43,567 nucleotides of DNA, from sequence record PP975109.1. The stretch is one strand, 5' to 3'. Under the pieces are notes generated by a model that was given only the letters and a program-made list of their open reading frames with translations, searched no databases and was not told where the DNA came from. The position numbers were made by a program, and so were the translations under genes. This DNA comes from Escherichia phage IK_ECO1. This document shows positions 15,520 through 39,454 of the stretch, piece after piece (the stretch's first letter is position 1; the number at the start of each line of letters is the position of its first letter).

Positions 15520-17643
15520 ATGGCTCTCGTACGTAATATTACTGTCCCGAGTTATTACTCTGGACTTAACGTTGTTGACTACGGGGTAGTAGGCGACGGT
15601 ATCTCGGATGATACAGTAGCCTATACTCGAACTGTTGAAGCTGCTAATGCACTGCAACTGCCTGTATATGTACCTCCAGGTATGCGTGTCCGTATCACCG
15701 GTAGTTCTAACATTACACATAAGTACGGTTTTAACTTTAACGGCAGTACCTTGGATATTCAAGAGTATGCTGGTAAGTTCCTGTTCCAGCGCCAGGTAGC
15801 CCCTGTTCAATACTCTGCTGGTTCGCCACTTCTTACTGCTTTAGCAAGTACTACTTTAAGCGGAACTTATAACAGTGTTATGTCAGGCCGTACAGAACTG
15901 GATAACTGCTACGTAAATATAGTTACTAACCAGCCGTACTATACCTACCGTGGGGCTGTTACTACTCGTACTGAACGTTTAGCTGTAATCCGTAACGGTA
16001 TGCTTGAGGGCACTCTTAAATATCCGCTTGCAGGTTCTAGAATCACAGGCATCACTGCATACCCTCTTCCAGATAAGGAAGTAGTGTATGAGAACGTGGT
16101 GGTGGACGTAGGTGCTAATCAGCTGCAAGGTAACCCGTTCCTGATTGAGGCCGATAAGGTACGTTTAGAGAACTGGTCTTTTAAGCAATCTAACGTACTA
16201 TTTACCTCTGTAAATCCAGTATACGTAGTCATGCGTAACTGCTTCCATATGCGCGTACGCAACTTCCAGATGCAGTGGACTACTCGTACCGCTGCTAACA
16301 ACTTTACGTACGGCGTGGCTGCTGAGTACTGTTCAGATATCGAGTTTGACTCAATGAAAGGTGTAGGCGACGGTTGGGGCATGACCGGTTTCAACGAGAA
16401 TCGTCGCTGTACCTTCAGGAACTGTCAGCTTAGCCGAATAGATACGCACCAGCCTTTCATTGAATGGTTGCGTGTGCTGGACTGTGATACCGGTCAGTGG
16501 GGTATTAGTCTAACTGCCTTAGGTGATGTTATTGTTAAAGGTGGTAGCATTACCCTGACTAACGATAGCGTTTATACAGATAAGGTAGGCTTTATACTAT
16601 TGCGTAATGAGTGCGGCGGGGTACTGGATGGTCAGTTAGTAGTTGATGATGTTACCCTCAAGAACTACACCAGTACTACAACTCAAGCCTTAGTATATCA
16701 CCGTGGGGACTTAGCAGATGCCCCACCTTCAGGTTCCCCTGTTAACTTCCAATGCAGTAGCAGTATGCTCATCAAGAACCTGCGTTCAGATGGCCGCATC
16801 GTAGAGCTTGCCCCTACCATCAACGGTGCTTCAGGTATTAAGTACCCGGCCAGTATCGTAGTTCAGGACTGTATTGAAGGTATCTACAGCTTTGCTACTA
16901 ATATAAGTACCTTTACCCCGAACAGTACGATAACTACTCCAGTCGATAACGCCTTAGGTAGTATCTCGAATCTGAAGGTACAGTTACGTAGCTGCAATAT
17001 CCGCAGTAACGTCTCCCTGGTAGATACGTCCATCCCACAGAAATTTGTAGTGGATATGCTGCTTGATGGTGTATTCGGAAACGGTGCATTCAATCCGGGA
17101 CTACAGGTTAAGTTCGGAGGTACTGTCAGCTGTGTTAACTCTGTACTGGAAGGCTTGGACTTCTTCTCAGGGGCTGCACTGGACCGGTACTTGAAGGTGT
17201 CAGTAGTAGGTGGAGGTATTCGCCACACTGGACGTTTCCGTACTGTACCTGTGAACGGGGCTAATACCTTAGTCTCGGTTATTATCCAGGGAGCTGCATT
17301 GCAGAGCACTACGGCTGCTGCATTACGTTATTATATGGTGGCGCATCTGCAAGGTTGTACCTACAGCGTAGCCGGGTCTGCCAGTACCCCTACATTAACT
17401 GTCACCCCAGATGGTAGTACTAGTTACGATACTGGGGTAGTTGGTATTAACAGTAAGAACCTAATGCAACTTACAGCCAGTGTAAGTGGGGTACTTAGAA
17501 GGGTACCGTTCTTCCTGCCTGCTAGTGGTGGTAGTACTTACGTGCAGTTAGATAACGGTGTTTACGCTAACATAACCTACAGCGGAAGTACTGTAACTGT
17601 TTCTACCACAGCAGGTTTAGGCGGGATTACGTTGGTAGGCTGA
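15520..17643 (+). CDS. Tailspike / polysaccharide depolymerase, right-handed beta-helix (pectate-lyase-like), 707 aa
   Basis: N-terminal motif NVVDYGVVGDGISDDT typical of pectate lyase 3 / beta-helix tailspikes; last structural-type gene before the non-coding region; lacks T7 fiber anchor domain. Confidence 0.6.
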   Translation: MALVRNITVPSYYSGLNVVDYGVVGDGISDDTVAYTRTVEAANALQLPVYVPPGMRVRITGSSNITHKYGFNFNGSTLDIQEYAGKFLFQRQVAPVQYSAGSPLLTALASTTLSGTYNSVMSGRTELDNCYVNIVTNQPYYTYRGAVTTRTERLAVIRNGMLEGTLKYPLAGSRITGITAYPLPDKEVVYENVVVDVGANQLQGNPFLIEADKVRLENWSFKQSNVLFTSVNPVYVVMRNCFHMRVRNFQMQWTTRTAANNFTYGVAAEYCSDIEFDSMKGVGDGWGMTGFNENRRCTFRNCQLSRIDTHQPFIEWLRVLDCDTGQWGISLTALGDVIVKGGSITLTNDSVYTDKVGFILLRNECGGVLDGQLVVDDVTLKNYTSTTTQALVYHRGDLADAPPSGSPVNFQCSSSMLIKNLRSDGRIVELAPTINGASGIKYPASIVVQDCIEGIYSFATNISTFTPNSTITTPVDNALGSISNLKVQLRSCNIRSNVSLVDTSIPQKFVVDMLLDGVFGNGAFNPGLQVKFGGTVSCVNSVLEGLDFFSGAALDRYLKVSVVGGGIRHTGRFRTVPVNGANTLVSVIIQGAALQSTTAAALRYYMVAHLQGCTYSVAGSASTPTLTVTPDGSTSYDTGVVGINSKNLMQLTASVSGVLRRVPFFLPASGGSTYVQLDNGVYANITYSGSTVTVSTTAGLGGITLVG

Positions 17644-17819: not shown

Positions 17820-17830
17820 GGGGGGGGGGG
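17820..17830. repeat. G11 homopolymer flanked by palindromes (cccccataggggg; gcaggccaactagtgggcctgc)
   Basis: Seen directly in sequence. Confidence 0.8.
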
Positions 17831-17857
17831 TGGACGTTTAGACGTCTAGCAGGCCAA

Positions 17858-18280
17858 CTAGTGGGCCTGCTAGTGCGCTCTAGGGAGCCGTAGAAGCTCC
17901 CTGCGTGCCTTAGTGGGTATTGCTAGTGCTATCCTATGCTTATCGCTGTGTGCCTCTTGTAGAAGCTCTGGGAAGCTCTGGGAGGCACTGGGCTATCCCT
18001 TGCTATCCCTGCGTATTCACTGGGTGCGCTCTGGGCTATCCCTGCGTGCTCTCTGTGGGGCGTAGGGGGTGCGCTCTGCCTTGCTTATTTTGTGCCTGTA
18101 TTGTGCGCCTAGTGGGCCAGCTAGTGCGCTGTGGTGCTATCCCTAGTGCGTACTAGGCTATCCACTGGCTATCCTTAGTGCTTTACATTGTGCCGATTCT
18201 GTGCTACGCTGCGCGCTCCCCACTAGGGCGCACATCCACTACCCACCACACACCGCCACCTAGTGCTATCTCTTCACCCT
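17858..18280. repeat. Dense family of short direct repeats (ctagtg(c/g), gctatcc(c)t, gaagctctggg x2, ctgggctatccctgcgt x2) in non-coding DNA; probable genome-terminus / packaging or replication-associated region
   Basis: Repeats read by eye; no credible ORF; resembles short-repeat arrays near T7-type genome ends. Confidence 0.5.
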
Positions 18281-18309
18281 TACTTTCATTCGAAAGCTAA
18301 TAAGAAATG

Positions 18310-18327
18310 ATGTTACAGGAGTAGGAG
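18310..18327 (+). promoter_or_regulatory. Copy of repeated motif atgttacaggagtaggag in non-coding region; candidate phage RNAP promoter
   Basis: Exact identity with copies at 7085 and 38994. Confidence 0.4.
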
Positions 18328-18781
18328 GGTTTTAGGGCACTACATACACACTACCTACTACTACTCACTAGTATCCCCTAGTAATGCCCTATATTACGAC
18401 CGTAGGGAGTAAGCATTACCTACACAGTCACCGCATCACTACGTGCCCTTTCACTTCGTACGGGCACTACGTTCTGCTTATGTAGTGTTAGATGGTATTA
18501 GTTAGCATTGGCTAGTATTGGTTACAGCCATTGGCTGCATAGTGCTATCTCTAGAGCTATCACTAGAATAGAAGCATTGGCTAAGTGTTTGCCCTGCTTA
18601 CTCTTTTTGCTCTTAAGGATAAATAGTTGCAAAAAGTATCAAATAGTACTTGCTTCTTTTGGTTTATTGGCGCTATAGTTCAATCACCGGGAGGCACTGA
18701 GGCGCTGAACGGGGTAGAGTCGGGAGACTCCACCGGATTAAAGCTAGATGGTGTGAAGGGTTAGATACTCGATAAAAAGAG

Positions 18782-18810
18782 TTGACACCGCGAAGAACAT
18801 AAGCTAGATT
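18782..18810 (+). promoter_or_regulatory. Candidate host sigma70 early promoter: TTGACA - 17 nt - TAGATT
   Basis: Perfect -35 hexamer, 17-nt spacer, -10 with TAnnnT; upstream of early genes on the coding strand. Confidence 0.45.
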
Positions 18811-19010
18811 GAATCCCGAAGTAAGTAGTAAGGGTCGCTACCGGCTCCCACGGTAGCAGTTCGGGAAGGTACTACAACCTAACAAGGGCTTGACTAGCCC
18901 GCTAGTGTACCGCTGAGGCGGAGTAATACAGGACGCAAAGTGTCGCCCGCTGAGGGGCTACAGCTCACGGGGGAGGTTAACAGGCTCCCGATTTAGTAAG
19001 AAATAAACGC

Positions 19011-23251: not shown

Positions 23252-24285
23252 TGTATGGTGTTGACCTTAAACTACTGACAAAGATACTAACAACGCACCG
23301 ACCTAGCTGGGGTAGTACCAAATGGTTTGAGCCTCTTCTTAGTGGTGCCCTTGCCAATGCAGAGCACTATGTAAGGGATGCGCACGGTAACTACTTTGTA
23401 CTAATTGGTAACTCTGAACAGAGCGACGTAGCGTTTACATCACACCTCGATACAGTGGCCCGGCCCGGTAGCGCTGCGCCGGACATTGCAATTACTAACA
23501 AGGGCGTAATGTTCCTGCGGAATCCACAGGTTGCGGACTGTCTCGGGGCAGACTGTGGTGCCGGTATCTACCTGATGCTGGAGATGATTAAGCGCGGTGT
23601 GCATGGACGTTACTGCTTCTTCGTGGATGAGGAAGTAGGTTGTGAGGGCAGCAGAGCATCAGCCAAGGACGATACTGGCTTCTGGACTGGGGTCAAGGCA
23701 ATGATTAGCTTTGACCGCCGGGGTGATGGTATCATCACGCATCAACGATACCAGCGTTGCTGTTCTGATACGTTCGCAAAAGAACTCGCGGCCCGGCTAG
23801 GGCGCACGGAAGCGCACTTACAGAAAGGAGTGTACACTGACTCTGCCGAGTTCATAAGTATTATCCCAGAGTGCACTAACGTAGGCGTAGGGTACATGCA
23901 TGAGCATACACCAGACGAGGTGTTGGACTTGAATATACTCGGACAAGTACTTGAGCGCGTACTACAAGCGGGTACGTTCAAGCACCTACCGATTGAGCGG
24001 GATCCTAAGGTAGTGGAGCCGGATGCGTGGTTGTCCGCCTCAGCGTACCCTTTTGTCACAGCGCTGGATATTCCCCCTGCAGAGGATCCGCATTTACTAG
24101 CAGCATTCAAGGAGGTGTCACAGCTTTCTAAGCAGCAACTGATTGGTTGGGTGTTGGATAACCCGGCAAGAGCGGCAGAGTACATCATGGTGTATTCTGA
24201 CTATGGATTTAAAGATGAGCTGATTGAACTAGGTACCCGAGTTGTAGAGGACTGGGGTGGGTATGATAATATTGTGGAGGGTTGA
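23251..24285 (+). CDS. Putative Zn-metallopeptidase-like protein (M20/M28/M42-type motif order), 344 aa
   Basis: Motif order H-x-D (SHLDTV), GADCGAG, DEEVGCEG, later HEH, as in aminopeptidase-type metal sites; read by eye, not searched. Confidence 0.35.
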   Translation: MYGVDLKLLTKILTTHRPSWGSTKWFEPLLSGALANAEHYVRDAHGNYFVLIGNSEQSDVAFTSHLDTVARPGSAAPDIAITNKGVMFLRNPQVADCLGADCGAGIYLMLEMIKRGVHGRYCFFVDEEVGCEGSRASAKDDTGFWTGVKAMISFDRRGDGIITHQRYQRCCSDTFAKELAARLGRTEAHLQKGVYTDSAEFISIIPECTNVGVGYMHEHTPDEVLDLNILGQVLERVLQAGTFKHLPIERDPKVVEPDAWLSASAYPFVTALDIPPAEDPHLLAAFKEVSQLSKQQLIGWVLDNPARAAEYIMVYSDYGFKDELIELGTRVVEDWGGYDNIVEG

Positions 24286-24287
24286 TT

Positions 24288-24746
24288 ATGTCTAAGTTTA
24301 AAGTTGGTGATAAGGTTGTACGCAAACATTATAAAGATGATGAGATATTTAAAAGCAGACAAGGGGATTGTATTTACTACACAATTACTGATATGTCCGA
24401 ACATGGCTACTGGCTGCAGTTGAATAACTTTTCCTACGATGGTGATCGCGTGCCGTGGTCTGCTGCCAACTTCGAGCTATATCAAGAGCCGGACGACGAG
24501 CTGCCACCGGTTCCGGACAGCGTCTACTATCCGGATATGTACACACTGTTAACGGGGTTACGTGCATGTGAAGGTACATCCGGGTTAACTGTGCGGAAAT
24601 CTCCATATACCTCGGGGGCTTTAAGCCTATCTATTGATGATAGTAAATGGACACGATTAGATGCGGATGCAGCCCTGCAGTTAGCGCATGACCTACGCCG
24701 CATGGCTATGGAGATTCGGAGGAAGGAGAAAGCTAGTGAAGTATGA
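24288..24746 (+). CDS. Hypothetical protein, 152 aa, N-terminal FKVGDKV barrel-like motif
   Basis: ATG 24288 with RBS ggaggg; N-terminus similar to the protein at 27422. Confidence 0.45.
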   Translation: MSKFKVGDKVVRKHYKDDEIFKSRQGDCIYYTITDMSEHGYWLQLNNFSYDGDRVPWSAANFELYQEPDDELPPVPDSVYYPDMYTLLTGLRACEGTSGLTVRKSPYTSGALSLSIDDSKWTRLDADAALQLAHDLRRMAMEIRRKEKASEV

Positions 24747-25197
24747 GTATAACCCGGATACCGGCGAGATACTCCGTTACGGAAAACCCGTGGGGTCTAA
24801 GGACTCCTCTGGGTATTTGGTGGTATGGGTAGATGGCAAGTGCTGGAGAGCACACCGTCTTGCTTACCATTTGCAAGGCCTGCCTGTACCCAAACAAGTG
24901 GACCACATAAACGGCATCCGAGACGATAACAGGTGGATTAATCTGCGAGCAGCCACTAACTCGCAGAACCAATACAATAGAAAACCCTGCTCTTCCTCAG
25001 GGAATTTGAAGGGTGCTTATTACAATAAAGCAATGCGTAGTTGGTATTCTTTAATCAGGGTAAATGGTAAACGTAAGTATCTAGGTTCCTTTACTTCTGA
25101 GGAAGCAGCTCACGCTGCCTATGTGGAAGCGGCACAGCAACTACATGAGGGTTTTGATATATGGACGAGCCGTGGCTTAGAGCCTGCAAGCGCCTAG
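24736..25197 (+). CDS. HNH homing endonuclease with AP2-type DNA-binding domain
   Basis: HRLAYH…VDHINGIRDDNRWINL…SQNQ (HNH) followed by GAYYNKAMRSWYSLIRVNGKRKYLGSFTSEEAAHAAY (AP2-like); GTG 24736 likely start, or ATG 24688. Confidence 0.7.
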   Translation: MKYEYNPDTGEILRYGKPVGSKDSSGYLVVWVDGKCWRAHRLAYHLQGLPVPKQVDHINGIRDDNRWINLRAATNSQNQYNRKPCSSSGNLKGAYYNKAMRSWYSLIRVNGKRKYLGSFTSEEAAHAAYVEAAQQLHEGFDIWTSRGLEPASA

Positions 25198-25949
25198 CTA
25201 TAGGGCAGTCCAGCAGGTTCAGGTGCTGCGGGAGCACTCCCGCGGCGATAATCTACAACAAGCAAGACGCCTGGAGTATGTACTGTTTCCGGTGTCACAA
25301 AACAGTTAATGAGCGCAAGCAGTATCAGCGCATACAGTTACAGGAAGAGCCGAGGGTGCAGCCCTCTGCACCTGCAGATGCAATTTGCATTAGCCAAGCG
25401 ACTGCAGAAACACAGAGTTTTATTTACGGATTCCTTGCTTCAAAAGGAATCATGCCTGAAATGGTGGAGGATGCAGAATGGAGCAACGAGAAACAGCGGA
25501 TACTATTCCGTGTCGGGGGTGCTGTACTGGGTCGTGCTGTTCATGCCCGACAGCAACCGAAGTGGGTAATGTACGGCCAGCCAATACCGTTCGCTGCCGT
25601 GGGACCTGCCGTAGCACCGGATGTAGCTGCGGCCGCACCTCTAAAGGTCGTGCTCACCGAGGACTTACTCTCAGCCCGGAAGATACAGCACGCAGTTACG
25701 AGCTACAGTGCGTTGAACGTGCAGGCTATAGCTATGCTGGGTACACGCTTGCCCACGCCGCTAAGGGCCTGGCTGATTCAGAATCGCCCGGAAGCGATTC
25801 TGATGCTAGACAATGACCCGGCAGGGCACGCTGGGGTAGCGGCGGCGCGCAAAGCACTGCGCCCGTTCATGCAGTGCCGAGAACACTACTTCGCTGCGGA
25901 CCCTAAGGACGCAGAAATCAAGGAGATACTGGAGGCTTTGGATGTTTAA
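25161..25949 (+). CDS. DNA primase (zinc-binding N-terminus plus TOPRIM), 262 aa
   Basis: Cys cluster CCGS…CFRCH; TOPRIM-like LTEDLLSA and LMLDNDPAGHAG motifs; precedes helicase. Confidence 0.6.
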   Translation: MDEPWLRACKRLAIGQSSRFRCCGSTPAAIIYNKQDAWSMYCFRCHKTVNERKQYQRIQLQEEPRVQPSAPADAICISQATAETQSFIYGFLASKGIMPEMVEDAEWSNEKQRILFRVGGAVLGRAVHARQQPKWVMYGQPIPFAAVGPAVAPDVAAAAPLKVVLTEDLLSARKIQHAVTSYSALNVQAIAMLGTRLPTPLRAWLIQNRPEAILMLDNDPAGHAGVAAARKALRPFMQCREHYFAADPKDAEIKEILEALDV

Positions 25950-26148
25950 GAATAAGTACAGAGTAGTGCAGGACAGCTACGCAGGATTTGAGGCGCAGGT
26001 TAAGTTCTGGTGGTTTCCGGTGCGCTGGTGGCAACTGTGCAGATCCGGGCGTGGGGTGGGTACTAACACGTACCCCAACCTTCATGAGGCAGAGAGCCTG
26101 TGTCGAGTACACGCCAGAAAGAGTACCATCTACAAAGTGGAGGTTTAA
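25942..26148 (+). CDS. Hypothetical protein, 68 aa
   Basis: RBS ggagg before ATG; between primase and helicase. Confidence 0.4.
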   Translation: MFKNKYRVVQDSYAGFEAQVKFWWFPVRWWQLCRSGRGVGTNTYPNLHEAESLCRVHARKSTIYKVEV

Positions 26149-27429
26149 TTGGACCTAATAGTAGTCAAGGCAATGTGCACGCAGAAGGTCTGGAACCGAC
26201 TGCGAGAGCAGATACCAAAGAGCATGCTCGCCCCCGATACCTCTAACCTACTGGACTGGGTAGGGCTGTACTGGAACACGTACCCGGAACACCAGGAGGT
26301 GCAGTGGGATGCGATGCAGAGCATGCTCAACCTCCGGGCCGGGCATCTATCCCGTGAAGAGCGGGTGATTATGGATGAGCTTATGCGGGGAGTACAAGCC
26401 GTGCCACAGGATTCTGTGGTGGGGATTGTCCAGACCCTGAACGAGCTAGCCTACAGCGGGGAGGTTGCGGCACTTACACAGCGCTACCAAGACGGTGAGG
26501 AGGTTGATTATCTTCTGGAGATGAAGCACCTCCAGCGCAAGTACGGTGATGGTGCTGCTGTTCATGATTCGCTACTGGAATGGGAGAGCGGAAGTGTTGA
26601 TGAGATACTTGCCGCGACTGATGAAAGTGGCGGGCTTAAACTGGGTGTGTTTGAGCAGCTGTCTAATAGCATTCGTGGGCTTCGCGGCGGTGATTGCATC
26701 GCCGTTGCTGCCCCTGTTGATTCTGGTAAAACTAGTCTACTCGCTGCTATTGCCGTGGACTTTGCTAAGCAGATGCAGCAGCAACCGGAAGTATACGGGG
26801 ATCGTCCGATTCTGTGGTTGGTTAACGAAGGCCCGGCGACGCGTACAGTGCCGAGGGTATATCAAGCGGCGCTGCATTGGACTCTGGCTGAGATTAAGGA
26901 GAGGCACAGTAAGCAAGAGTTTGTGCCAGCCTATCTAGAGAAAGTAGGTAGGGCCGACCGTATTCGTATCAAGGCAGCTCACTCTCTTACTATGGCTCAA
27001 ATCTCTACACTCATGGAGGAGATGCGCCCGGCAGTAATCATCATAGATATGGTGGCCAACATCCGTGGCGGAACTATGGAGAGCGAGCACCAGAATCTAG
27101 AGGCGAAGTGGCAGGAGCTGCGTATCTTGGGGTGTGAGAATGACTGTGCTGTTATTGGTACTATGCAGCTTTCACTCGAAGGTTACAACCTACTGTTTCC
27201 TCCGCTCACAGCAATGAAGCAGAGTAAGATTGGTGTACAAGGCGCTTTGGATTTGGCGATTATGATGGGGTGCTTGGACAGGAACGAGCAGCCGCATATG
27301 CAAAACATCCGTGGTATCAGTACACCTAAGAACAAGATGGCACTGTCTGGTAAGGAGTCGCTACTGCAATTTGAGGTAGCATTCGACCCAGGTAGGTGCC
27401 GATTTAATGAGGGTCAAATTAATGTGTAA
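26149..27429 (+). CDS. Replicative DNA helicase (DnaB/gp4-like), 426 aa
   Basis: Walker A AAPVDSGKTSLLA and Walker B-like VIIIDMV; TTG start at 26149 or ATG at 26173. Confidence 0.7.
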   Translation: MDLIVVKAMCTQKVWNRLREQIPKSMLAPDTSNLLDWVGLYWNTYPEHQEVQWDAMQSMLNLRAGHLSREERVIMDELMRGVQAVPQDSVVGIVQTLNELAYSGEVAALTQRYQDGEEVDYLLEMKHLQRKYGDGAAVHDSLLEWESGSVDEILAATDESGGLKLGVFEQLSNSIRGLRGGDCIAVAAPVDSGKTSLLAAIAVDFAKQMQQQPEVYGDRPILWLVNEGPATRTVPRVYQAALHWTLAEIKERHSKQEFVPAYLEKVGRADRIRIKAAHSLTMAQISTLMEEMRPAVIIIDMVANIRGGTMESEHQNLEAKWQELRILGCENDCAVIGTMQLSLEGYNLLFPPLTAMKQSKIGVQGALDLAIMMGCLDRNEQPHMQNIRGISTPKNKMALSGKESLLQFEVAFDPGRCRFNEGQINV

Positions 27430-27742
27430 TTTTAAAATTGGTGATAAAGTACGGCGCGATGTTGACCTAACCCGTGAGGCAGCTGACCGTACAGGTGTTC
27501 GTAGGGGTCGTGTATACACCGTTCGTAACGCAAGCGAGGCGATGATACAGCTGGTCGAATCAAAGGAACCTACCTTTCACTTTGCTCCAGAGGCATTCTC
27601 CCTAGTATCCCACAGTACTAATTGGGATGTAAATGAAGCGTTACGTCTGCGGGACTTGGCGGTACAGGCTATACAGGAGTATAACACGTACCTGCTGCGG
27701 CAGCCGCTGCTAGAGGCTATTGATATTCCGCTAATCAAGTGA
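27422..27742 (+). CDS. Hypothetical protein, 106 aa, N-terminal FKIGDKV motif (paralog of 24288 gene N-terminus)
   Basis: MCNFKIGDKVRR aligns with MSKFKVGDKVVR; alternative ATG at 27407. Confidence 0.45.
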   Translation: MCNFKIGDKVRRDVDLTREAADRTGVRRGRVYTVRNASEAMIQLVESKEPTFHFAPEAFSLVSHSTNWDVNEALRLRDLAVQAIQEYNTYLLRQPLLEAIDIPLIK

Positions 27743-27747
27743 CTTCC

Positions 27748-27780
27748 CTAGCGCCTTCCTAGAGGGCGCTATGTAGGTAC
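27748..27780 (+). promoter_or_regulatory. Conserved stem-loop element, copy 3 (ctagcgccttcctagagggcgctatgtaggtac)
   Basis: Stem tagcgcc / ggcgcta followed by tatgt…gta as in copies 1 and 2. Confidence 0.35.
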
Positions 27781-27792
27781 ATAGGAGGCTAT

Positions 27793-27948
27793 TATGCTTA
27801 AACCGTCAGACATCAACTACCTCGATGACGAGGTAATCAAGGTGTACGCTGCATCTGCAGGTACTTTCCGTAAACGATTCGCGCTGGAAGTTAGCCAGCT
27901 GATTGTGCATCTGGCTATCAACAAGGCTCGGAGGACTAATTGGAAATG
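27793..27948 (+). CDS. Small hypothetical protein, 51 aa
   Basis: RBS ataggagg before ATG 27793; stop overlaps HNH start (ATGA); below track threshold. Confidence 0.3.
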
Positions 27949-28395
27949 AGTGAGTGCGTAGACCACGGACAGAAGGGAAGCACTTGCCGAGGAAAGGGTG
28001 CTGGATATGGCCGCTCCAGATTTGACGGGGAGACAACTGGCAGCCACCGCAAAGCATACTGTATAGCCCACAACTTGAAGCTGAGCGATATCGCGGGACT
28101 TGTAGTCCGGCATTCGTGCGACAATCCTCGGTGCATAAATCCGGAGCACCTGCTACTAGGGACTTCTAGCGATAATATGCAGGACCGAAATAAAGGTGCG
28201 CGTAATTTACTGGGCAGCCGCAACCCTGCTGCCAGACTTACCCCAGAAGACGTGCACAGCATACGAGAAGCATACGCTGGCGGTGAGACCCAGGTATCTA
28301 TAGCGAGACGCTTCGGGACAAGTCAAGGATACATATCTAATATCATAAAGGGGAGGGTATGGAATGAGCAGAAGCATCCTGATAACGGATTATGA
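27946..28395 (+). CDS. HNH endonuclease, about 149 aa
   Basis: VVRHSCDNPRCINPEHLLLGTSSDNMQDR; ATG 27946 with RBS ggagga; 3' end overlaps the DNA polymerase start by 32 nt. Confidence 0.7.
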   Translation: MSECVDHGQKGSTCRGKGAGYGRSRFDGETTGSHRKAYCIAHNLKLSDIAGLVVRHSCDNPRCINPEHLLLGTSSDNMQDRNKGARNLLGSRNPAARLTPEDVHSIREAYAGGETQVSIARRFGTSQGYISNIIKGRVWNEQKHPDNGL

Positions 28396-30739
28396 GACGC
28401 AAAATCACCCGTATTACGGTAGCGTTGCTTCCCCGTACTGTCCGGATAATTACATCGTAGAATCAGCGTGGCGTATTGACCGCACGCACGATGACGGTAC
28501 GGTAGAAGTAGGCCCCGTAGAGAGTGTACGGTATAACAGTCGCGCGCACTTTGAAGCGGCACCTGTATCAGAATGGCTCCCAATACCAGCTGACTGTTGG
28601 CTGATTGTGGCCCACAACGCCGCATATGAGATTAGCTGGTTCCTAACCTTTGCGCGCGCCGAGTTTGAGGCCTTCCTAAAGCGGGGAGGTCGCGTATTCT
28701 GTACGATGCATTCTGAGTACATCGCCTCGGACTTTCAGAACATGTATCCTTCGCTGGACGAGACGGCTCCTAAGTACGGCGGTACGCACAAAGTAGATGG
28801 GGTTAAGATTCTCTGGGAGCAGGGTGTATTAACCTCCCAGATTGACCCGATGCTGCTGCACGACTACCTAGTTAACGGGGACATCCCGAACACGGCCCTA
28901 TGCTTCTACGGGCAGTGCGCTACGTTCGCCCAGCGTAACCAGATGCAGTACGTGTGGGAACGTATGGATGCCTTACTGGCCTGGGCCTACTGCGAATGGT
29001 TCGGTCTGTTCGTGAACATGCCCATTGCTCGCAAGAACCAAGAAGAGCAGGAACAGCGTATACTGGAGATTAAGAAGGAGCTGCAGCAGTACATCCCGAA
29101 GGACTTGCCGGAAACACTGGATTTCAACTTCGGCTCTGACTTTCATATGTCTGCGCTGGTCTACGGCGGGCCTATCAAGTATCGCAAGAAAGTGCCGTAC
29201 GACCCACCACAGTACGTTAAGTATGATGCGTATCTAGTGCAGGGCACTGACGGGACATTCGTACCATGCGATAGCACAGACGTTTCTGGGCCACATAATT
29301 ACGTAACCTACAAAGCAGGGAAGAACAAGGGCCTGCCAAAAGTGTTCCGAGTGGACACCGACGAGGAGAAACTTAAATGGGAGGATGATCTCTACTTCTG
29401 TCCGGGCCTGGTTAATATCCAAGAACTCCCCGAGGTGCTTCGAGAGAAGTATGCCGAGCGCGGAGAGTTCAGGCAAGCCCGGTGCCTGCAGGATGGGACA
29501 CCAGTCTACAGTACTAGCACCGACGCTATGGAAGCCCTAGCACGTCACGGGTTTGAGTTCTGTCGATTGGTGAACGAGCTAGGCGCTCTGGAGAAGGACA
29601 CGGGAACCTACTACTTAAGGGAGGTTCTTGATTCTGAGGGGCGCGTCAAAGAGCGCAAGGGGATGCTGCAGTATGTAATCCCGGAACGAGAAGATGGTTC
29701 AGGTATTATCCACCACCGTTTGAATACCAGCGCTACTGTGACGGGGCGTTTAAGCAGCTCTAACCCGAACCTGCAGAACCTGCCCCGCCCAGATGAGGAC
29801 GGGGATGGGGTGGCTAAATCCAAGGTGAAGCAGGTATTCACCAGTCGATTCGGCGATAACGGACGCATCACTGAGGTTGACTACTCGGCGCTGGAAGTGG
29901 TTATGTCCTGCGTGCATACGGGTGACAAGAAACTGCTGGGACTGCTGCAGAGTGGTACGGATATGCACTGCTACCGCCTAGCTTTCCGCGAGGAACTGCC
30001 CTATGAAGAAGTATATGAGCGCTGCCACAACAAGAAGCACGAGCTGCATCCGGTTTGGAAGGCAATGCGTACAGGTATTAAGGCTCCTAGCTTTGCAGCC
30101 CAGTATGGCGCTACGGCTAAGGGGATTGCGTTTGCTACTGGATGTACGGTGGAATTTGCACAGGCTTTCTTGGACAATGAGGCTGCGCTGTTCCCGCAAA
30201 CAATTGGCTTCCGCGCTGTTGTCAAGGAAGAGGTAGAGCGTACTGGGGCAGCCGGGCGTATTTATCGGGAACAAGCTGATGATGGTAGCTACCGCATCTA
30301 TCGCATTGGCACCTGGACCAGCCCAGCTGGTGCACGGTACAGCTTCCGCCAGAAGGAGCAGTGGAAGGAAGTAGTACCTGGCCAGCGCAAACAAAAGGTG
30401 ATGGACTACAAAGAAACTGAGATGGCTAACTACTGGTGTCAGGGTGAGGCATTCTTCCTGATGGCAGTAGCAGCTGGCATGGTTCTGCGTGCAATGCTGG
30501 CGCGTGATTGGTTCGATAACCAGGTGTGTTTGATTACGAACGTGCACGATGCGTTGTATCTGGATAGTGCTAATCCAGAAGTAGGCAGAGAAGCGAGCTT
30601 GTTGGTCAAGCAGTGTATGGAGGATGCGCCTAAGCGTATCCACCAGCTCTGGCCTAACTACGGCATCATTGGCGAGGTCCCGTTCCCAGCGGAAGCTGAA
30701 ATGGGTACGAGTATGTACAGCAAGGAGAAAGTAGAATGA
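28364..30739 (+). CDS. DNA polymerase, family A (T7 gp5-like) with 3'-5' exonuclease domain, 791 aa
   Basis: Exo I motif ITDYETQ; Pol I motif TGRLSSSNPNLQNLP; motif C-like NVHDALY. Confidence 0.85.
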   Translation: MSRSILITDYETQNHPYYGSVASPYCPDNYIVESAWRIDRTHDDGTVEVGPVESVRYNSRAHFEAAPVSEWLPIPADCWLIVAHNAAYEISWFLTFARAEFEAFLKRGGRVFCTMHSEYIASDFQNMYPSLDETAPKYGGTHKVDGVKILWEQGVLTSQIDPMLLHDYLVNGDIPNTALCFYGQCATFAQRNQMQYVWERMDALLAWAYCEWFGLFVNMPIARKNQEEQEQRILEIKKELQQYIPKDLPETLDFNFGSDFHMSALVYGGPIKYRKKVPYDPPQYVKYDAYLVQGTDGTFVPCDSTDVSGPHNYVTYKAGKNKGLPKVFRVDTDEEKLKWEDDLYFCPGLVNIQELPEVLREKYAERGEFRQARCLQDGTPVYSTSTDAMEALARHGFEFCRLVNELGALEKDTGTYYLREVLDSEGRVKERKGMLQYVIPEREDGSGIIHHRLNTSATVTGRLSSSNPNLQNLPRPDEDGDGVAKSKVKQVFTSRFGDNGRITEVDYSALEVVMSCVHTGDKKLLGLLQSGTDMHCYRLAFREELPYEEVYERCHNKKHELHPVWKAMRTGIKAPSFAAQYGATAKGIAFATGCTVEFAQAFLDNEAALFPQTIGFRAVVKEEVERTGAAGRIYREQADDGSYRIYRIGTWTSPAGARYSFRQKEQWKEVVPGQRKQKVMDYKETEMANYWCQGEAFFLMAVAAGMVLRAMLARDWFDNQVCLITNVHDALYLDSANPEVGREASLLVKQCMEDAPKRIHQLWPNYGIIGEVPFPAEAEMGTSMYSKEKVE

Positions 30740-30957
30740 CCATTAAACCGGGTAGTATTGTGGAAATAATTGGGCTTGGGCCGGAACCCTTAGAGCCTAG
30801 ACATCGTGACTACTTTGCACCGGGTACTCAGCATCGAGTGATATCTTATGACCCTGAACTTTGGGAGGTGGAGTTAATGAATCCAGACAATAATTCAGAG
30901 AAGCCTGGAGATGGTATTACCTTCTTCTCTGGAGAGTACAAACTTGTAGCGGAGTGA
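30736..30957 (+). CDS. Hypothetical protein, 73 aa, small barrel-like
   Basis: ATGA overlap with polymerase stop; N-terminus IKPGSIVEII. Confidence 0.4.
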   Translation: MTIKPGSIVEIIGLGPEPLEPRHRDYFAPGTQHRVISYDPELWEVELMNPDNNSEKPGDGITFFSGEYKLVAE

Positions 30958-31080
30958 TGATAGGTGGACCCTTGGGTGGTGTAGGGGGTTAGGGTAACAT
31001 GAGAATTAGCTGGGGTCAAGCAGATAATTAAATAAAATTATTTGTTGACTCTGGCTTGATTTTGTGATTCACAGAGAATT

Positions 31081-31099
31081 AATGTGATACGAGTAGGAA
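31081..31099 (+). promoter_or_regulatory. Variant of the repeated motif (aatgtgatacgagtaggaa), 20 nt upstream of the HNH gene at 31119; candidate phage RNAP promoter
   Basis: 16 of 19 positions match aatgttacaggagtaggaa; lies in an AT-rich intergenic segment. Confidence 0.3.
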
Positions 31100-31118
31100 C
31101 AACATAAGAGGATACCAA

Positions 31119-31553
31119 ATGTCGATGTGCATTGACCATGGGTATACCAAATGCCTTAATAAGAATGGGTACCGCCGGGCATGGTATAAGCCAACTAAGC
31201 GATTAGAGCTTCTGCACCGAGTGGTGTACGCTGAGCATAATGGGATAGATATAGGGGAGATGGCCGGGCTGTCTGTTAGACACACCTGCGATAACCCTAG
31301 GTGCATTAATCCAGAGCACTTAGTGCTGGGGACGCACTTAGATAATATGAACGACCGTGCAGAACGTGGGAGGAACCCGGATGTACGGGGAGAGCGGAAC
31401 CCAAAAGCACTGCTATCTTGGGAGGCCGTGCGGGATATTAGGGCCAACTATGTCCCGTACAAGAAAGGTGTGCGGCAACACTTTGCTAATAAGTATGGTG
31501 TGGGTGTACATGTAATTAGTGACGTAATAAGTAACAGGAGCTGGAATGCCTAA
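31119..31553 (+). CDS. HNH endonuclease, 144 aa (paralog of 27946 gene)
   Basis: SVRHTCDNPRCINPEHLVLGTHLDNMNDR, near-identical core to the 27946 protein; AT-rich codon usage. Confidence 0.7.
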   Translation: MSMCIDHGYTKCLNKNGYRRAWYKPTKRLELLHRVVYAEHNGIDIGEMAGLSVRHTCDNPRCINPEHLVLGTHLDNMNDRAERGRNPDVRGERNPKALLSWEAVRDIRANYVPYKKGVRQHFANKYGVGVHVISDVISNRSWNA

Positions 31554-32526
31554 GTTAAACACAATAAAGTTATTCACCAAAGAGCAACACGTAGATATCT
31601 TAAGCAAGCACAGTTCTAACGTGGACGCTGCGGCTGCTTACAATAAGCTTGCGGGATTAAGCGAGCCAGTGGTGTACCGCCAGATGGTTAAGTATTGGCG
31701 CAGCATCTTCCTAGACCATGGTGGTAGCAAGGGTAAGGCTGTGTCACATATGAAGGAAGCATTAAAGCTCATACAGCCAAGTCCGACTGATGACTTAGGT
31801 AAAACCTTTGTACCAGAGGTATGTCACCGCATCTTAGTGGTGGGGGATCTGCACGCCCCTTACACCCACATAGACGCTATGGACTTCTTAGAGTCTGTCC
31901 GAGACACTTACTGCCCGGACATGGTTGTACAGGTTGGGGATGAAACTGATGGGCATGCTATTTCGTTTCACGAAAGCAATCCGAACCTGGATAGCGCTGG
32001 GGTGGAGTTAGAGAAAGCCAAGCTCGTGCTGGAGGAGCTGTATGAACTATTCCCGAACCTACTGGTTTGCGATTCCAATCACGGGAGTCTGGTGTATCGC
32101 CGCGCCAAGGCTCACGGTTTACCAGTACAGTTCATTAAGAAATATCGGGACATTCTGTTCCCCGAACATGGTGCGCCTGCATGGTCGTGGGCTGACGCTT
32201 GGGTACTTAACACCCCTCTCGGCCCTGTACGTTTCCAGCACCAAGTTAGTGGTGACTTCATGCTTAACGCTTCCCACGAACGTACAAGCCTCGTCCTCGG
32301 TCATGAACATGGGCGCTTCGAGGTTCAGTATGCAGCATCAAGCACCGCTCTTTACTTCGGGGCATACGCCGGGTGCTTGATTGACCGCAAGAGTATGGCC
32401 TTTGCATACGGCAGACTCTCCCGCAAGAAACCAATCCTGGGTGTGCTGGTAATCACCGAGGGTTGCCCGCAATTAATTCCGATGCTGCTCGACGAAGATG
32501 GTCGTTGGGTTGGTCGTTCTAAATAA
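31546..32526 (+). CDS. Putative calcineurin-like metallophosphoesterase, 326 aa
   Basis: Motif order GDLHAPY, GDETDGH, CDSNHGS, LGHEHG resembles the metallophosphatase signature; read by eye. Confidence 0.45.
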   Translation: MPKLNTIKLFTKEQHVDILSKHSSNVDAAAAYNKLAGLSEPVVYRQMVKYWRSIFLDHGGSKGKAVSHMKEALKLIQPSPTDDLGKTFVPEVCHRILVVGDLHAPYTHIDAMDFLESVRDTYCPDMVVQVGDETDGHAISFHESNPNLDSAGVELEKAKLVLEELYELFPNLLVCDSNHGSLVYRRAKAHGLPVQFIKKYRDILFPEHGAPAWSWADAWVLNTPLGPVRFQHQVSGDFMLNASHERTSLVLGHEHGRFEVQYAASSTALYFGAYAGCLIDRKSMAFAYGRLSRKKPILGVLVITEGCPQLIPMLLDEDGRWVGRSK

Positions 32527-32539
32527 TAGAGAGGTAGTG

Positions 32540-32704
32540 ATGAAAATGGGAATCTGTTCTGTACTGGGCCTCATCTTCGTAACCCTGAAACTGACTGGAG
32601 TTATCGCCTGGTCTTGGCTGTGGGTGCTGCTCCCGTTCTGGGGCCCTGCTGCGCTGGCTGTAATCCTGGTGTTCGTTGCCGCCGCCGTCGCTTCAAAACG
32701 CTAA
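32540..32704 (+). CDS. Small membrane protein, 54 aa, two hydrophobic helices
   Basis: ATG 32540 after RBS gagg; sequence MKMGICSVLGLIFVTLKLTGVIAWSWLWVLLPFWGPAALAVILVFVAAAVA. Confidence 0.4.
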   Translation: MKMGICSVLGLIFVTLKLTGVIAWSWLWVLLPFWGPAALAVILVFVAAAVASKR

Positions 32705-32755
32705 GCCCTGCATCTGCACGTAAATATTATTTGAACTAAACGAGGACATAATTAT

Positions 32756-33589
32756 ATGACTATGAATGCACTGGACACTCTGAACTCCCTGGTAGCTGCT
32801 GCGATTGAAACGCAGGATGTTGATATGACTGAAACCTCACAGGGTGGTGCGTACGAGGATGTACTGCTGCCGAAGGGTGAGTACTATGGCTACTTCACCG
32901 AGTATGTGGAAATTGGTAAACGCCTACCGACTAAGGGTGGTAAACCTACGGGTAAGCCCGCCGCAGCGAATGTGCGTATCGGGATTGTGGTGTATGGCCC
33001 GAACGGTGAGGTGAAGCGTATCCGTCCGTATCCGATGACTATCAGCAACTTTGAGCGCGCTGGCTTCAAGAAGTTCTTCGACAAACTCAACTATGATGGC
33101 AGCATTAAGCACGCTGCGCAGCGACTGGGACAGGCGTTCGTATTCCCAGTGGATGAGCACACCAGCACGGCAGGTAAGAAGTCTAACATTGTAGACCTCG
33201 CAGCAATCCGTCCGATTCCGAAGTTCGACCCGAATACCGGCGAGCCGATTAAAATGCCTGAGCTGGATGCTTCCGAGATTAAGCTGTTCTTGTGGAACAA
33301 TCCGACCAAAGAAACCTGGGATAGCTTGTATATCGAAGGGACCAAGGATGATGGTAAGAGTAAAAACTGGATTCAGGAGGACATGTACAAGGCCGTAGAC
33401 TTCCCAGGCAGTGCGTTGGATATTATGCTGAATGCTGGTTCGGTTCCGAGTCCCCAGTCTATGCAGGCCCCAGCCACCCCGGCTGCGCCCACTGCACCAG
33501 CGGCACCAAGCGCCCCTGTAGCACCAGCAGCGCCAGTGGCTCCAGCGGCCCCTGTAGCGCCTGTAGCGCCTGCTGCACCGCAAGCCTAA
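32756..33589 (+). CDS. Hypothetical protein, 277 aa, C-terminal Pro/Ala-rich repeat tail; possible DNA-binding protein
   Basis: ORF with RBS gagga; C-terminus APATPAAPTAPAAPSAPVAPAAPVAPAAPVAPVAPAAPQA; function not assignable. Confidence 0.4.
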   Translation: MTMNALDTLNSLVAAAIETQDVDMTETSQGGAYEDVLLPKGEYYGYFTEYVEIGKRLPTKGGKPTGKPAAANVRIGIVVYGPNGEVKRIRPYPMTISNFERAGFKKFFDKLNYDGSIKHAAQRLGQAFVFPVDEHTSTAGKKSNIVDLAAIRPIPKFDPNTGEPIKMPELDASEIKLFLWNNPTKETWDSLYIEGTKDDGKSKNWIQEDMYKAVDFPGSALDIMLNAGSVPSPQSMQAPATPAAPTAPAAPSAPVAPAAPVAPAAPVAPVAPAAPQA

Positions 33590-39010: not shown

Positions 39011-39454
39011 ATGAAGTTAAAACACACTAGTAAAACACCCAATACTCACTCACTAAAAGTTCTGCATAAGCACGATGATATTAGAGAAGCAGTGAGGGCT
39101 CTGCACGAACTTGGTCACGGCATTAGTCGGGGCCTTACCACAGAGCAACACTATTGGAGAGTACTAAAAAGTATACTAGGTAAACAGTATATACTAGGAG
39201 TCTATGACTCCCGGGGCGACTTAGTAGGTGCTGTCAGTTACTACCCGGAAGCTGTAGAGGACTGCCATTACGTAGAGCCTGTGTTGTACACAGACTTCTT
39301 CGTATTGAAACCAGGAAACAGTGAGGCAATGCTTGTAGTTATGAAGGGTCTGCAAGCAATCGCTAAGTGTATGCGAGCTGGGCGCATCGCCATTAGTCGC
39401 AATACATCGGATAATACTTACAAAACAACTTACCATTTAGTGAGGTCAGCATGA
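39011..39454 (+). CDS. Hypothetical protein, 147 aa, possibly GNAT-like acetyltransferase fold; lower GC than neighbours
   Basis: ORF with AT-rich codon usage; weak resemblance to GNAT core (ILGVYDSRGDLVGAVSYY … FFVLKPGNSEAMLVVMKGL); speculative. Confidence 0.3.
   Translation: MKLKHTSKTPNTHSLKVLHKHDDIREAVRALHELGHGISRGLTTEQHYWRVLKSILGKQYILGVYDSRGDLVGAVSYYPEAVEDCHYVEPVLYTDFFVLKPGNSEAMLVVMKGLQAIAKCMRAGRIAISRNTSDNTYKTTYHLVRSA

Follow-up and report, generated by a model that had tools for sequence, protein, structure and literature searches.

Three HNH genes in the replication module

Escherichia phage IK_ECO1 was analyzed as a stretch of 43,567 nucleotides (nt; PP975109.1), which we refer to in its full length as the window. 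Its layout is that of a phiKMV/KP34-type podophage with every gene on the + strand, and its replication module contains three genes for HNH (His-Me finger) proteins, HNH1, HNH2 and HNH3, which are the subject of this work. Two of them flank the DNA polymerase gene, and an earlier sequence-only reading had proposed that they are recently acquired homing endonuclease genes. Positions 27000–32600 match 270 phage records, chiefly Klebsiella Drulisvirus, at nucleotide identities of at most 84–88%, and the structural half is 93–94% identical to the Escherichia phages AV102, EC22.5-2 and Minorna. Together, these identities place the genome as a Minorna-like Drulisvirus (KP34-like). The helicase of the window is 86–88% identical to those of Klebsiella phages, which are 93–95% identical among themselves; by this measure the backbone of the window falls outside the group formed by the Klebsiella phages. 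The presence of each gene was counted by tblastn against 50,697 phage records, using the ~270 records with the region as denominator; these record counts take in GenBank/RefSeq duplicates and clusters of near-identical isolates. For nucleotide comparison, 12 relatives were fetched. The three genes and their immediate partners are listed below (RBS, ribosome-binding site; aa, amino acids).

24736–25197, + strand: HNH3, endonuclease gene of the HNH_3 type, free-standing; the C-terminal part may be AP2-like and bind DNA
27946–28395, + strand: HNH1, free-standing HNH endonuclease gene; its 3' end holds the polymerase RBS and start codon
28364–30739, + strand: Family A DNA polymerase gene, 791 aa, uninterrupted (Pfam DNA_pol_A, E = 4.4e-28)
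28364–28678, + strand: polymerase 5' end, HNH1-linked allele, codons 1–105, Exo I region; the low-divergence tract runs to ~28740
31119–31553, + strand: HNH2, free-standing HNH endonuclease gene of the HNH1 family, between the phosphoesterase RBS and start codon
31546–32526, + strand: metallophosphoesterase gene, 326 aa (Pfam Metallophos at cut-off)
31546–31764, + strand: phosphoesterase 5' end, HNH2-linked allele, codons 1–73
27794–27949, + strand: orf51, small conserved backbone gene (phrog_4548) whose stop codon (ATGA) overlaps the start of the next gene

All three proteins pass the curated cut-off of Pfam HNH_3 (PF13392; 24.8 bits), scoring 30.3 (HNH1), 41.2 (HNH2) and 45.2 bits (HNH3). 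HNH1 and HNH2 share the PHROG family phrog_6254, and HNH3 belongs to phrog_99 (E = 4.6e-49). The architecture of HNH1 consists of an N-terminal Cys-rich His-Me finger and a C-terminal helix-turn-helix, the latter seen as weak matches below the Pfam cut-off in the C-terminal third. HNH2 passes the zf-His_Me_endon cut-off (28.2 bits) and HNH1 falls below it (21.9 versus 27 bits); in both, the Cys-rich zinc loop resembles the His-Cys box of I-PpoI (Pfam PF05551). The catalytic positions H56 and N60 are invariant at the sequence level across eight family members, and the block RH-x-CDNPRCINPEHL...DN, the same in HNH1 and HNH2, aligns to the catalytic region of I-HmuI. Searches of the PDB with single HNH sequences yielded nothing significant. 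The profile of the eight members matched I-HmuI (PDB 1U3E) over the catalytic region (E = 0.0014) and, weakly, I-PpoI. NCBIfam contains no family for HNH1, HNH2 or HNH3, and a search of the whole window returned no HNH gene beyond these three.

HNH1 and HNH2 had been described as paralogous. The two proteins do belong to one family (42% identity, E = 6e-34), but a duplication within this genome is ruled out because other phages carry, at the corresponding site, orthologs of each gene that are 96–98% identical, far closer than the two are to each other.

Junctions and downstream alleles

The HNH1 gene begins with an ATG in the ATGA overlap with the orf51 stop codon, 11 nt downstream of the RBS GGAGG (27931–27935). 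At its other end it overlaps the polymerase gene by the 32 nt originally reported (28364–28395), and the strong polymerase RBS, GGGGAGGG, is located in the HNH1 3' end. Minorna, NER40, KpV71 and JKT6 have no counterpart of HNH1; nucleotide homology to these four phages ends exactly at 27949 and restarts only at 28432–28592. In NER40 and KpV71 the polymerase ATG takes the ATGA position that is used by the HNH1 ATG in the window, and orf51 is followed by HNH1 in the window and by the polymerase gene in HNH-less phages.

HNH1 orthologs of at least 94% aa identity were found by tblastn in 25 records, with two further at ~80%; the KX1 and Buco proteins are 70% and 60% identical. Together with polymerase codons 1–105, HNH1 is 97.9–98.5% identical in nucleotide sequence to RMN1, Ou2 and phi1_146051, Klebsiella phages whose backbone is 82–91% identical to the window. 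A map of single-base mismatches gives a divergence of ~1% over ~28031–28739 and of ~10% on both sides. The polymerase proteins align from residue 1, and their first ~105 residues form two discrete allele classes: in HNH1-bearing phages the N-terminus reads MSRSILITDYETQNHPYYGSV... with a 4-residue deletion, and in HNH1-less phages it reads MTTSIMHIDLETENHEYYGSK.... The two classes are ~70% identical in nucleotides, with a 4-codon indel and dense synonymous and non-synonymous differences, and from codon 106 on all phages are 88–91% identical. Used as a 105-residue tblastn query, the window allele is found at 97% identity or more in 27 full-length records, all 27 of which carry an HNH1-type gene; the next class reaches at most 86%. 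We infer that polymerase codons 1–105 are a co-conversion tract and, at the same time, a nuclease-resistant version of the target.

HNH1 directly adjoins the polymerase 5' end in 25 of the 27 records. The exceptions are the Klebsiella phages Kpn BHU1 and BHU2 (OL979478.1, OL979479.1), in which the two are separated by tens of kilobases or are on opposite strands; these assemblies are probably rearranged. A small patch at HNH1 codons 2–5 is polymorphic among copies (SECV, TGCI, SKCI). Given this variation, the latest event at HNH1 may have been either a first insertion or a conversion between two HNH1-bearing genomes.

The occupant of the site upstream of the polymerase turns over between phages. 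In addition to HNH1, the site holds HNH variants of 70% (KX1), 60% (Buco) and 45% identity (VLC3 group), and next to each of these three the polymerase allele with the deletion occurs in a distinct version. Other occupants are an unrelated 118-aa open reading frame (ORF; JKT6, AttikonH4), a 60-aa ORF (Minorna), or nothing. The 118-aa ORF is phrog_1365 (L008 4953–5309; L009 9888–10244).

Klebsiella phage SRD2021 (L010 3001–5562) displays a further arrangement. Here 210 nt are deleted in frame, so that HNH1 codon ~120 is followed by polymerase codon 53, and a single ORF fuses the HNH domain to a polymerase without residues 1–52 and thus without the Exo I D-x-E motif. In the deposited annotation the polymerase begins at an internal Met inside the HNH part. 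This fusion is either a real variant or an assembly error.

The second junction lies downstream of the polymerase gene, past two further features.

30736–30957, + strand: orf73, small hypervariable backbone gene of 73 aa (phrog_6862), outside both HNH cassettes
30958–31118, + strand: spacer, conserved AT-rich intergenic sequence, GC 0.39, with a 41-nt palindrome at 31012–31052

As the sequence-only reading had noted, HNH2 lies about 380 nt from the polymerase gene (it begins 379 nt past the stop codon), and a 73-aa ORF and an AT-rich spacer occupy the interval. The 3' end of HNH2 brings a new RBS (AGGAG) and an ATG for the phosphoesterase, with an 8-nt overlap between the two genes. Homology with the HNH2-less phages Ou2, NER40, phi1_146051 and JKT6 ends at 31110, within the RBS, and restarts at 31668–31765. 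An alignment across the junction reveals a conserved spacer up to ...ACATAAGAG, followed by the phosphoesterase start in HNH2-less phages or by HNH2. Thus, the RBS at the spacer end serves HNH2 in the window and the phosphoesterase in phages without HNH2. The metallophosphoesterase is of equal length in phages with and without HNH2.

Similar to HNH1, HNH2 is linked to the 5' end of its downstream gene. Orthologs of HNH2 with at least 87% aa identity were detected by tblastn in 16 records, and the allele of the first 73 phosphoesterase residues occurs at 94% aa identity or more in exactly these records (16/16), the next best match being 65%. The protein alignment of the phosphoesterase splits five HNH2-bearing from four HNH2-less genomes. 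Phosphoesterase codons 1–73 are the putative HNH2 target region and resistant allele. Because the 16/16 linkage is downstream and polymerase-body alleles show no such linkage, HNH2 belongs functionally with the phosphoesterase gene and not with the polymerase.

In nucleotide sequence, HNH2 is closest to RCIP0111, at ~95% over 31100–31600 with flanks at ~84%. Identity to KpV71 is 92–94%, and to RMN1, Minorna and KX1 it is 83–85%, which is the backbone level. Judged by identity, HNH2 has moved recently among other phages: RMN1 and KX1 are 97.8% identical in HNH2 and 87.8% in the rest of the phosphoesterase gene. Between spacer and phosphoesterase, some phages have HNH2, NER40 and AttikonH4 have a gp5.5-like gene, and others have nothing. 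The gp5.5-like gene before the phosphoesterase encodes an H-NS inhibitor of phrog_1452 (L004 7742–8020; L009 13004–13282).

The third gene, HNH3, had been reported as an HNH-AP2 gene near the primase. We do find an HNH_3 gene directly upstream of the primase, but its AP2 part is less certain, as the match of residues 108–153 to AP2 (20.6 bits, E = 5.5e-4) is below the Pfam cut-off of 33.3 bits. The ORF is listed from 24688; a GTG at 24736 follows AAGGAG, matches the position where most orthologs start aligning and is almost certainly the true start. HNH3 shares 11 nt with the ORF before it and 37 nt with the start of the primase gene, and it stands in place of a small ORF of ~200 nt that precedes the primase in RMN1 and Minorna. 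Orthologs with at least 84% aa identity are present in 16 records, in all of them immediately 5' of the primase. HNH3 is 98.1% identical in nucleotides to AttikonH4, after which identity falls to 93.8% in the primase, 89.8% in the helicase and 77% in the peptidase and polymerase.

Distribution, linkage and competing explanations

Among the ~270 records, ~27 carry an HNH1-type gene, 16 carry HNH2 and 16 carry HNH3. Rather than being conserved in place throughout the genus, each gene is thus present in ~6–10% of the records, and each keeps the junction of the window in every annotated case examined. Empty sites were found between orf51 and the polymerase (NER40, KpV71) and between the spacer and the phosphoesterase (Ou2, phi1_146051, JKT6). 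The sporadic presence, the fixed junctions between conserved genes and the empty sites support the proposal that these are free-standing homing endonuclease genes. The accompanying claim of recent acquisition is well supported for HNH1 (98% versus 82–91% for the backbone) and HNH3 (98.1% versus 77–94%), and moderately for HNH2 (~95% versus ~84%). By these identities, recency is strongest for HNH1 and HNH3 and weaker for HNH2, the reverse of the emphasis that the sequence-only reading had placed on the downstream copy, for which it relied on a compositional signal that is absent (see below). The recent event could be a conversion between HNH-bearing phages instead of a first insertion.

The sporadic distribution, the fixed and empty sites, the identity peaks and, for HNH1 and HNH2, the perfect linkage to a 5' allele are observed directly. 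Based on them, we consider it probable (about 0.75) that each of HNH1, HNH2 and HNH3 is a free-standing homing endonuclease gene, a selfish element of an ordinary kind and independent of the other two. Each is a promoter-less cassette that lies directly before the start of the primase, polymerase or metallophosphoesterase gene, with a gene or an RBS on its upstream side, and the 3' end of each cassette carries the translation signals for its downstream gene. In a mixed infection, the enzyme would introduce a nick or a cut into the HNH-less allele, no more than a few hundred bases into the downstream gene. HNH1 is predicted to act within about the first 300 nt of polymerase genes without HNH1, and HNH2 within about the first 220 nt of phosphoesterase genes without HNH2. 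The lesion would then be repaired by recombination with the HNH-bearing genome as template, which would transfer the nuclease gene and, with it, a short stretch downstream, the resistant 5' allele; the HNH-bearing genome would itself be protected because its version of that allele is heavily diverged. Nuclease activity, target position and super-Mendelian inheritance of the HNH genes are inferred.

Several of our results weigh against homing. The HNH1 and HNH2 junctions hold non-nuclease cargo elsewhere (the phrog_1365 ORF and the gp5.5-like gene), so they accept insertions without a nuclease of their own. The linkage counts (27/27 and 16/16) include close isolates and duplicates and do not represent independent events. 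A strongly diverged primase 5' allele was not seen for HNH3, as homology runs from the first base of the primase at 80–91%, which gives no position for an HNH3 target. Most HNH2 orthologs are no closer to it than the backbone level (83–85%), and its movement may have ceased. Lastly, composition gives no foreign signature for the HNH genes.

The composition of each gene was compared with 51 + strand genes that have a mean GC of 0.507 (standard deviation (sd) 0.026) and a mean GC at third codon positions (GC3) of 0.529 (sd 0.059). HNH2, previously credited with visibly AT-rich codon usage, has a GC of 0.494 (z -0.5) and a GC3 of 0.538 (z +0.16), both within ~0.5 sd of the genome mean, and we do not find it AT-rich. 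The corresponding values are 0.520 and 0.513 for HNH1 and 0.486 and 0.494 for HNH3. The local dip in GC arises from the spacer (0.39) and orf73 (0.455), which are backbone common to HNH2-less relatives. In leave-one-out codon-usage likelihood, HNH1, HNH3 and HNH2 rank 2nd, 6th and 10th lowest of the 51 genes, a mild atypicality that is common to other short genes and unrelated to AT-richness, HNH2 being the least unusual of the three. GC and GC3 thus rule out a foreign or AT-rich composition of HNH2, the codon-usage fit of which is mildly low.

An alternative explanation is passive cargo: the HNH genes would be ordinary accessory genes that general or illegitimate recombination has moved among junctions tolerant of insertions, and the alleles and identity peaks would result from modular recombination and not from cleavage. 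The unrelated small genes at the same two junctions in other phages (phrog_1365 and the gp5.5-like H-NS inhibitor) fit this explanation, as do the genome-like composition of the HNH genes and the mosaicism of orf73 and of patches in the polymerase without a nearby nuclease. Against it, three junctions of one module each hold a nuclease gene with an intact catalytic motif. Additionally, at least three HNH sub-lineages (~97%, 70% and 45%) are found upstream of the polymerase, all beside one clade of deletion-bearing 5' alleles, and the linkage is confined to the downstream side, where a target in the downstream gene would place it. We regard passive cargo as unlikely.

The downstream-sided linkage is evident from the neighboring sequences, since orf51 alleles, orf73 types and polymerase-body alleles all cut across HNH presence. 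A different explanation for the linkage is that the HNH genes are more than selfish: HNH1 could act as a vehicle that spreads, among lineages apparently on different hosts, an adaptive form of the polymerase N-terminus with its 3'-5' exonuclease (Exo I) region, and HNH2 could do likewise for the phosphoesterase. If so, the cargo might confer altered proofreading or escape from host defence, for example, and the perfect linkage would reflect selection on the cargo plus target immunity. We consider this rather improbable.

It is about equally improbable that the HNH proteins have been domesticated, that is, that they serve the phage in host DNA breakdown, in initiation of replication or recombination, or in competitor exclusion, and are kept by selection. 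The three ORFs are intact, their catalytic residues are conserved and they are in tight translational coupling to replication genes, all of which fits this explanation; marker exclusion is moreover a known by-product of phage homing endonucleases (PMC2988022). However, more than 90% of close relatives lack each gene, the HNH1 gene is truncated in SRD2021, and in no relative are these genes conserved to the degree that a core function would call for.

The arrangement of two HNH genes around one polymerase gene also raises the possibility of a homing endonuclease gene (HEG) island, in which HNH1 and HNH2 would cooperate as flanking vehicles that move the whole polymerase gene (Barth et al. 2023). 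HNH genes of one family on both flanks of the polymerase fit the published definition (PMC10448857). The bracketed sequence, however, does not behave as a unit. Compared with RMN1, which carries both genes, HNH1 and the polymerase 5' end are 98% identical, but identity in the polymerase body is 82.4%, and orf73 finds no match at the nucleotide level; in sliding windows, identity to RMN1 drops to 50–88% beyond ~28930. The alleles of the polymerase body do not track HNH2, which is linked instead to the phosphoesterase 5' end. HNH1 and HNH2 occur together only in RMN1, where ~1.6 records would be expected if the two were independent, a co-occurrence at chance level, and no other listed record combines all three HNH genes. 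With the bracketed body and orf73 lacking raised identity, an island around the polymerase is largely ruled out, and we hold it to be very improbable. The bracketing to which the sequence-only reading had given weight is, on this evidence, a coincidence of two independent elements, each pointing downstream.

The polymerase body is 82–86% identical to relatives regardless of their HNH content, and the polymerase is colinear from codon 1 with those of HNH-less phages. An intron or intein is ruled out, as the gene is a single 791-aa ORF colinear from residue 1 with the HNH gene outside it, and an Rfam scan of 24000–33000 returned no match, introns included. Truncation of the polymerase or phosphoesterase N-terminus by the insertions is likewise ruled out, given that the proteins align from residue 1; annotated length differences among relatives trace to start-codon choice and indels. 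Two patches of the polymerase gene, ~29222–29314 and ~29990–30130, have no nucleotide homology with any relative (50–65% in 100-nt windows), the remainder being 77–95% identical.

Between the polymerase and HNH2, orf73 has a GC of 0.455 (z -2.0), the second-lowest in the genome; nine genomes have three types of its allele, and their distribution follows neither HNH gene. The spacer is 89–97% identical in 12 of 12 relatives fetched, exceeds the neighboring coding sequence and is the best-conserved stretch of the region. Because it is conserved up to the RBS in phages with and without HNH2, the spacer belongs to the backbone, and we rule out that it is inserted DNA or a foreign AT-rich island. 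Its 41-nt palindrome, GGGGTCAAGCAGATAATT-AAATAA-AATTATTTGTTGACTCT, is nearly invariant (fold z = -3.3). The palindrome had no Rfam match, and its variation is too low to reveal covariation; it may be a promoter or operator, an RNA processing site or a replication signal. Scans of 24000–33000 for sigma-70 promoters and terminators gave fewer matches than shuffled sequences and nothing usable.

Two genes elsewhere in the window stand out in composition. The gene at 39011–39454 (phrog_5167, function unknown) has the lowest GC in the window (0.444, z -2.4) and a poor codon-usage fit. The gene at 15520–17643 (707 aa) is low in both GC (0.468) and GC3 (0.432), and nucleotide identity to the closest E. 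coli phages stops at or shortly past its start (Minorna at ~15522; EC22.5-2 and AV102 at 17830–18817); it is probably a swapped tail spike or receptor-binding gene.

Relation to known homing systems

Intronless homing was defined for T4 (PMC2988022), and the closest match to the genes described here is T4 mobE. This promoter-less HNH gene lies between nrdA and nrdB, upstream of nrdB; its product nicks nrdB at nt 122–126 in the mobE-less phage T2, polymorphisms in its own nrdB protect it, and flanks are co-converted (PMC2790892). The HNH1/polymerase and HNH2/phosphoesterase pairs share both the anatomy and the allele pattern of mobE/nrdB. In contrast to mobE, there is no detectable sequence relation past the HNH motif, the C-terminal part here being a helix-turn-helix; the putative target genes and the phage family are also different.

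By profile, the nearest solved relative is I-HmuI of Bacillus phage SPO1 (1U3E), which has the same order of an N-terminal HNH and a C-terminal DNA-binding domain and is a nicking endonuclease aimed at a phage DNA polymerase gene. Unlike the genes of the window, I-HmuI sits in a group I intron, whereas here the polymerase ORF is continuous, the HNH gene lying outside it, and HNH1 and HNH2 carry the Cys-rich zinc loop. In the HEG islands that Barth, Dunham and Seed (2023) described for ICP1-like and other phages, bracketed essential genes are inherited as high-identity blocks (PMC10448857). The replication module of IK_ECO1 resembles these islands in that HEGs cluster by essential replication genes, often on both sides, and in the turnover of site occupants, as seen upstream of the polymerase. 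It differs in what is inherited together at high identity, namely a short tract on the downstream side of each HEG and not the polymerase gene between them.

The annotated HNH genes of RMN1, Ou2, KpV71, Minorna and AttikonH4 are orthologs (88–98% aa) at the same three junctions, although none of these phages has the combination of all three that the window has. The HNH genes are thus members of a well-known element type with near-identical annotated orthologs already public. Differences in homing endonuclease genes between close Drulisvirus/KP34-related phages have also been noted (PMC7013548; PMC6115819). A literature search combining Drulisvirus with HNH and homing endonuclease returned no paper, and we did not meet the linkage of HNH genes to a downstream 5' allele in the literature consulted on these phages, in which no search was aimed at linkage.

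These findings leave current understanding unchanged. The ~270 Drulisvirus genomes provide a well-sampled natural case of three HEGs at base-precise junctions with short co-inherited tracts, and the diverged, linked 5' alleles of two genes lead to a concrete prediction of where cutting would occur. In the phages now used in Klebsiella therapy, this would account for some of the mosaicism of the replication module. Additionally, the evidence shows that nuclease genes on both sides of a polymerase gene do not by themselves make a jointly mobile island.

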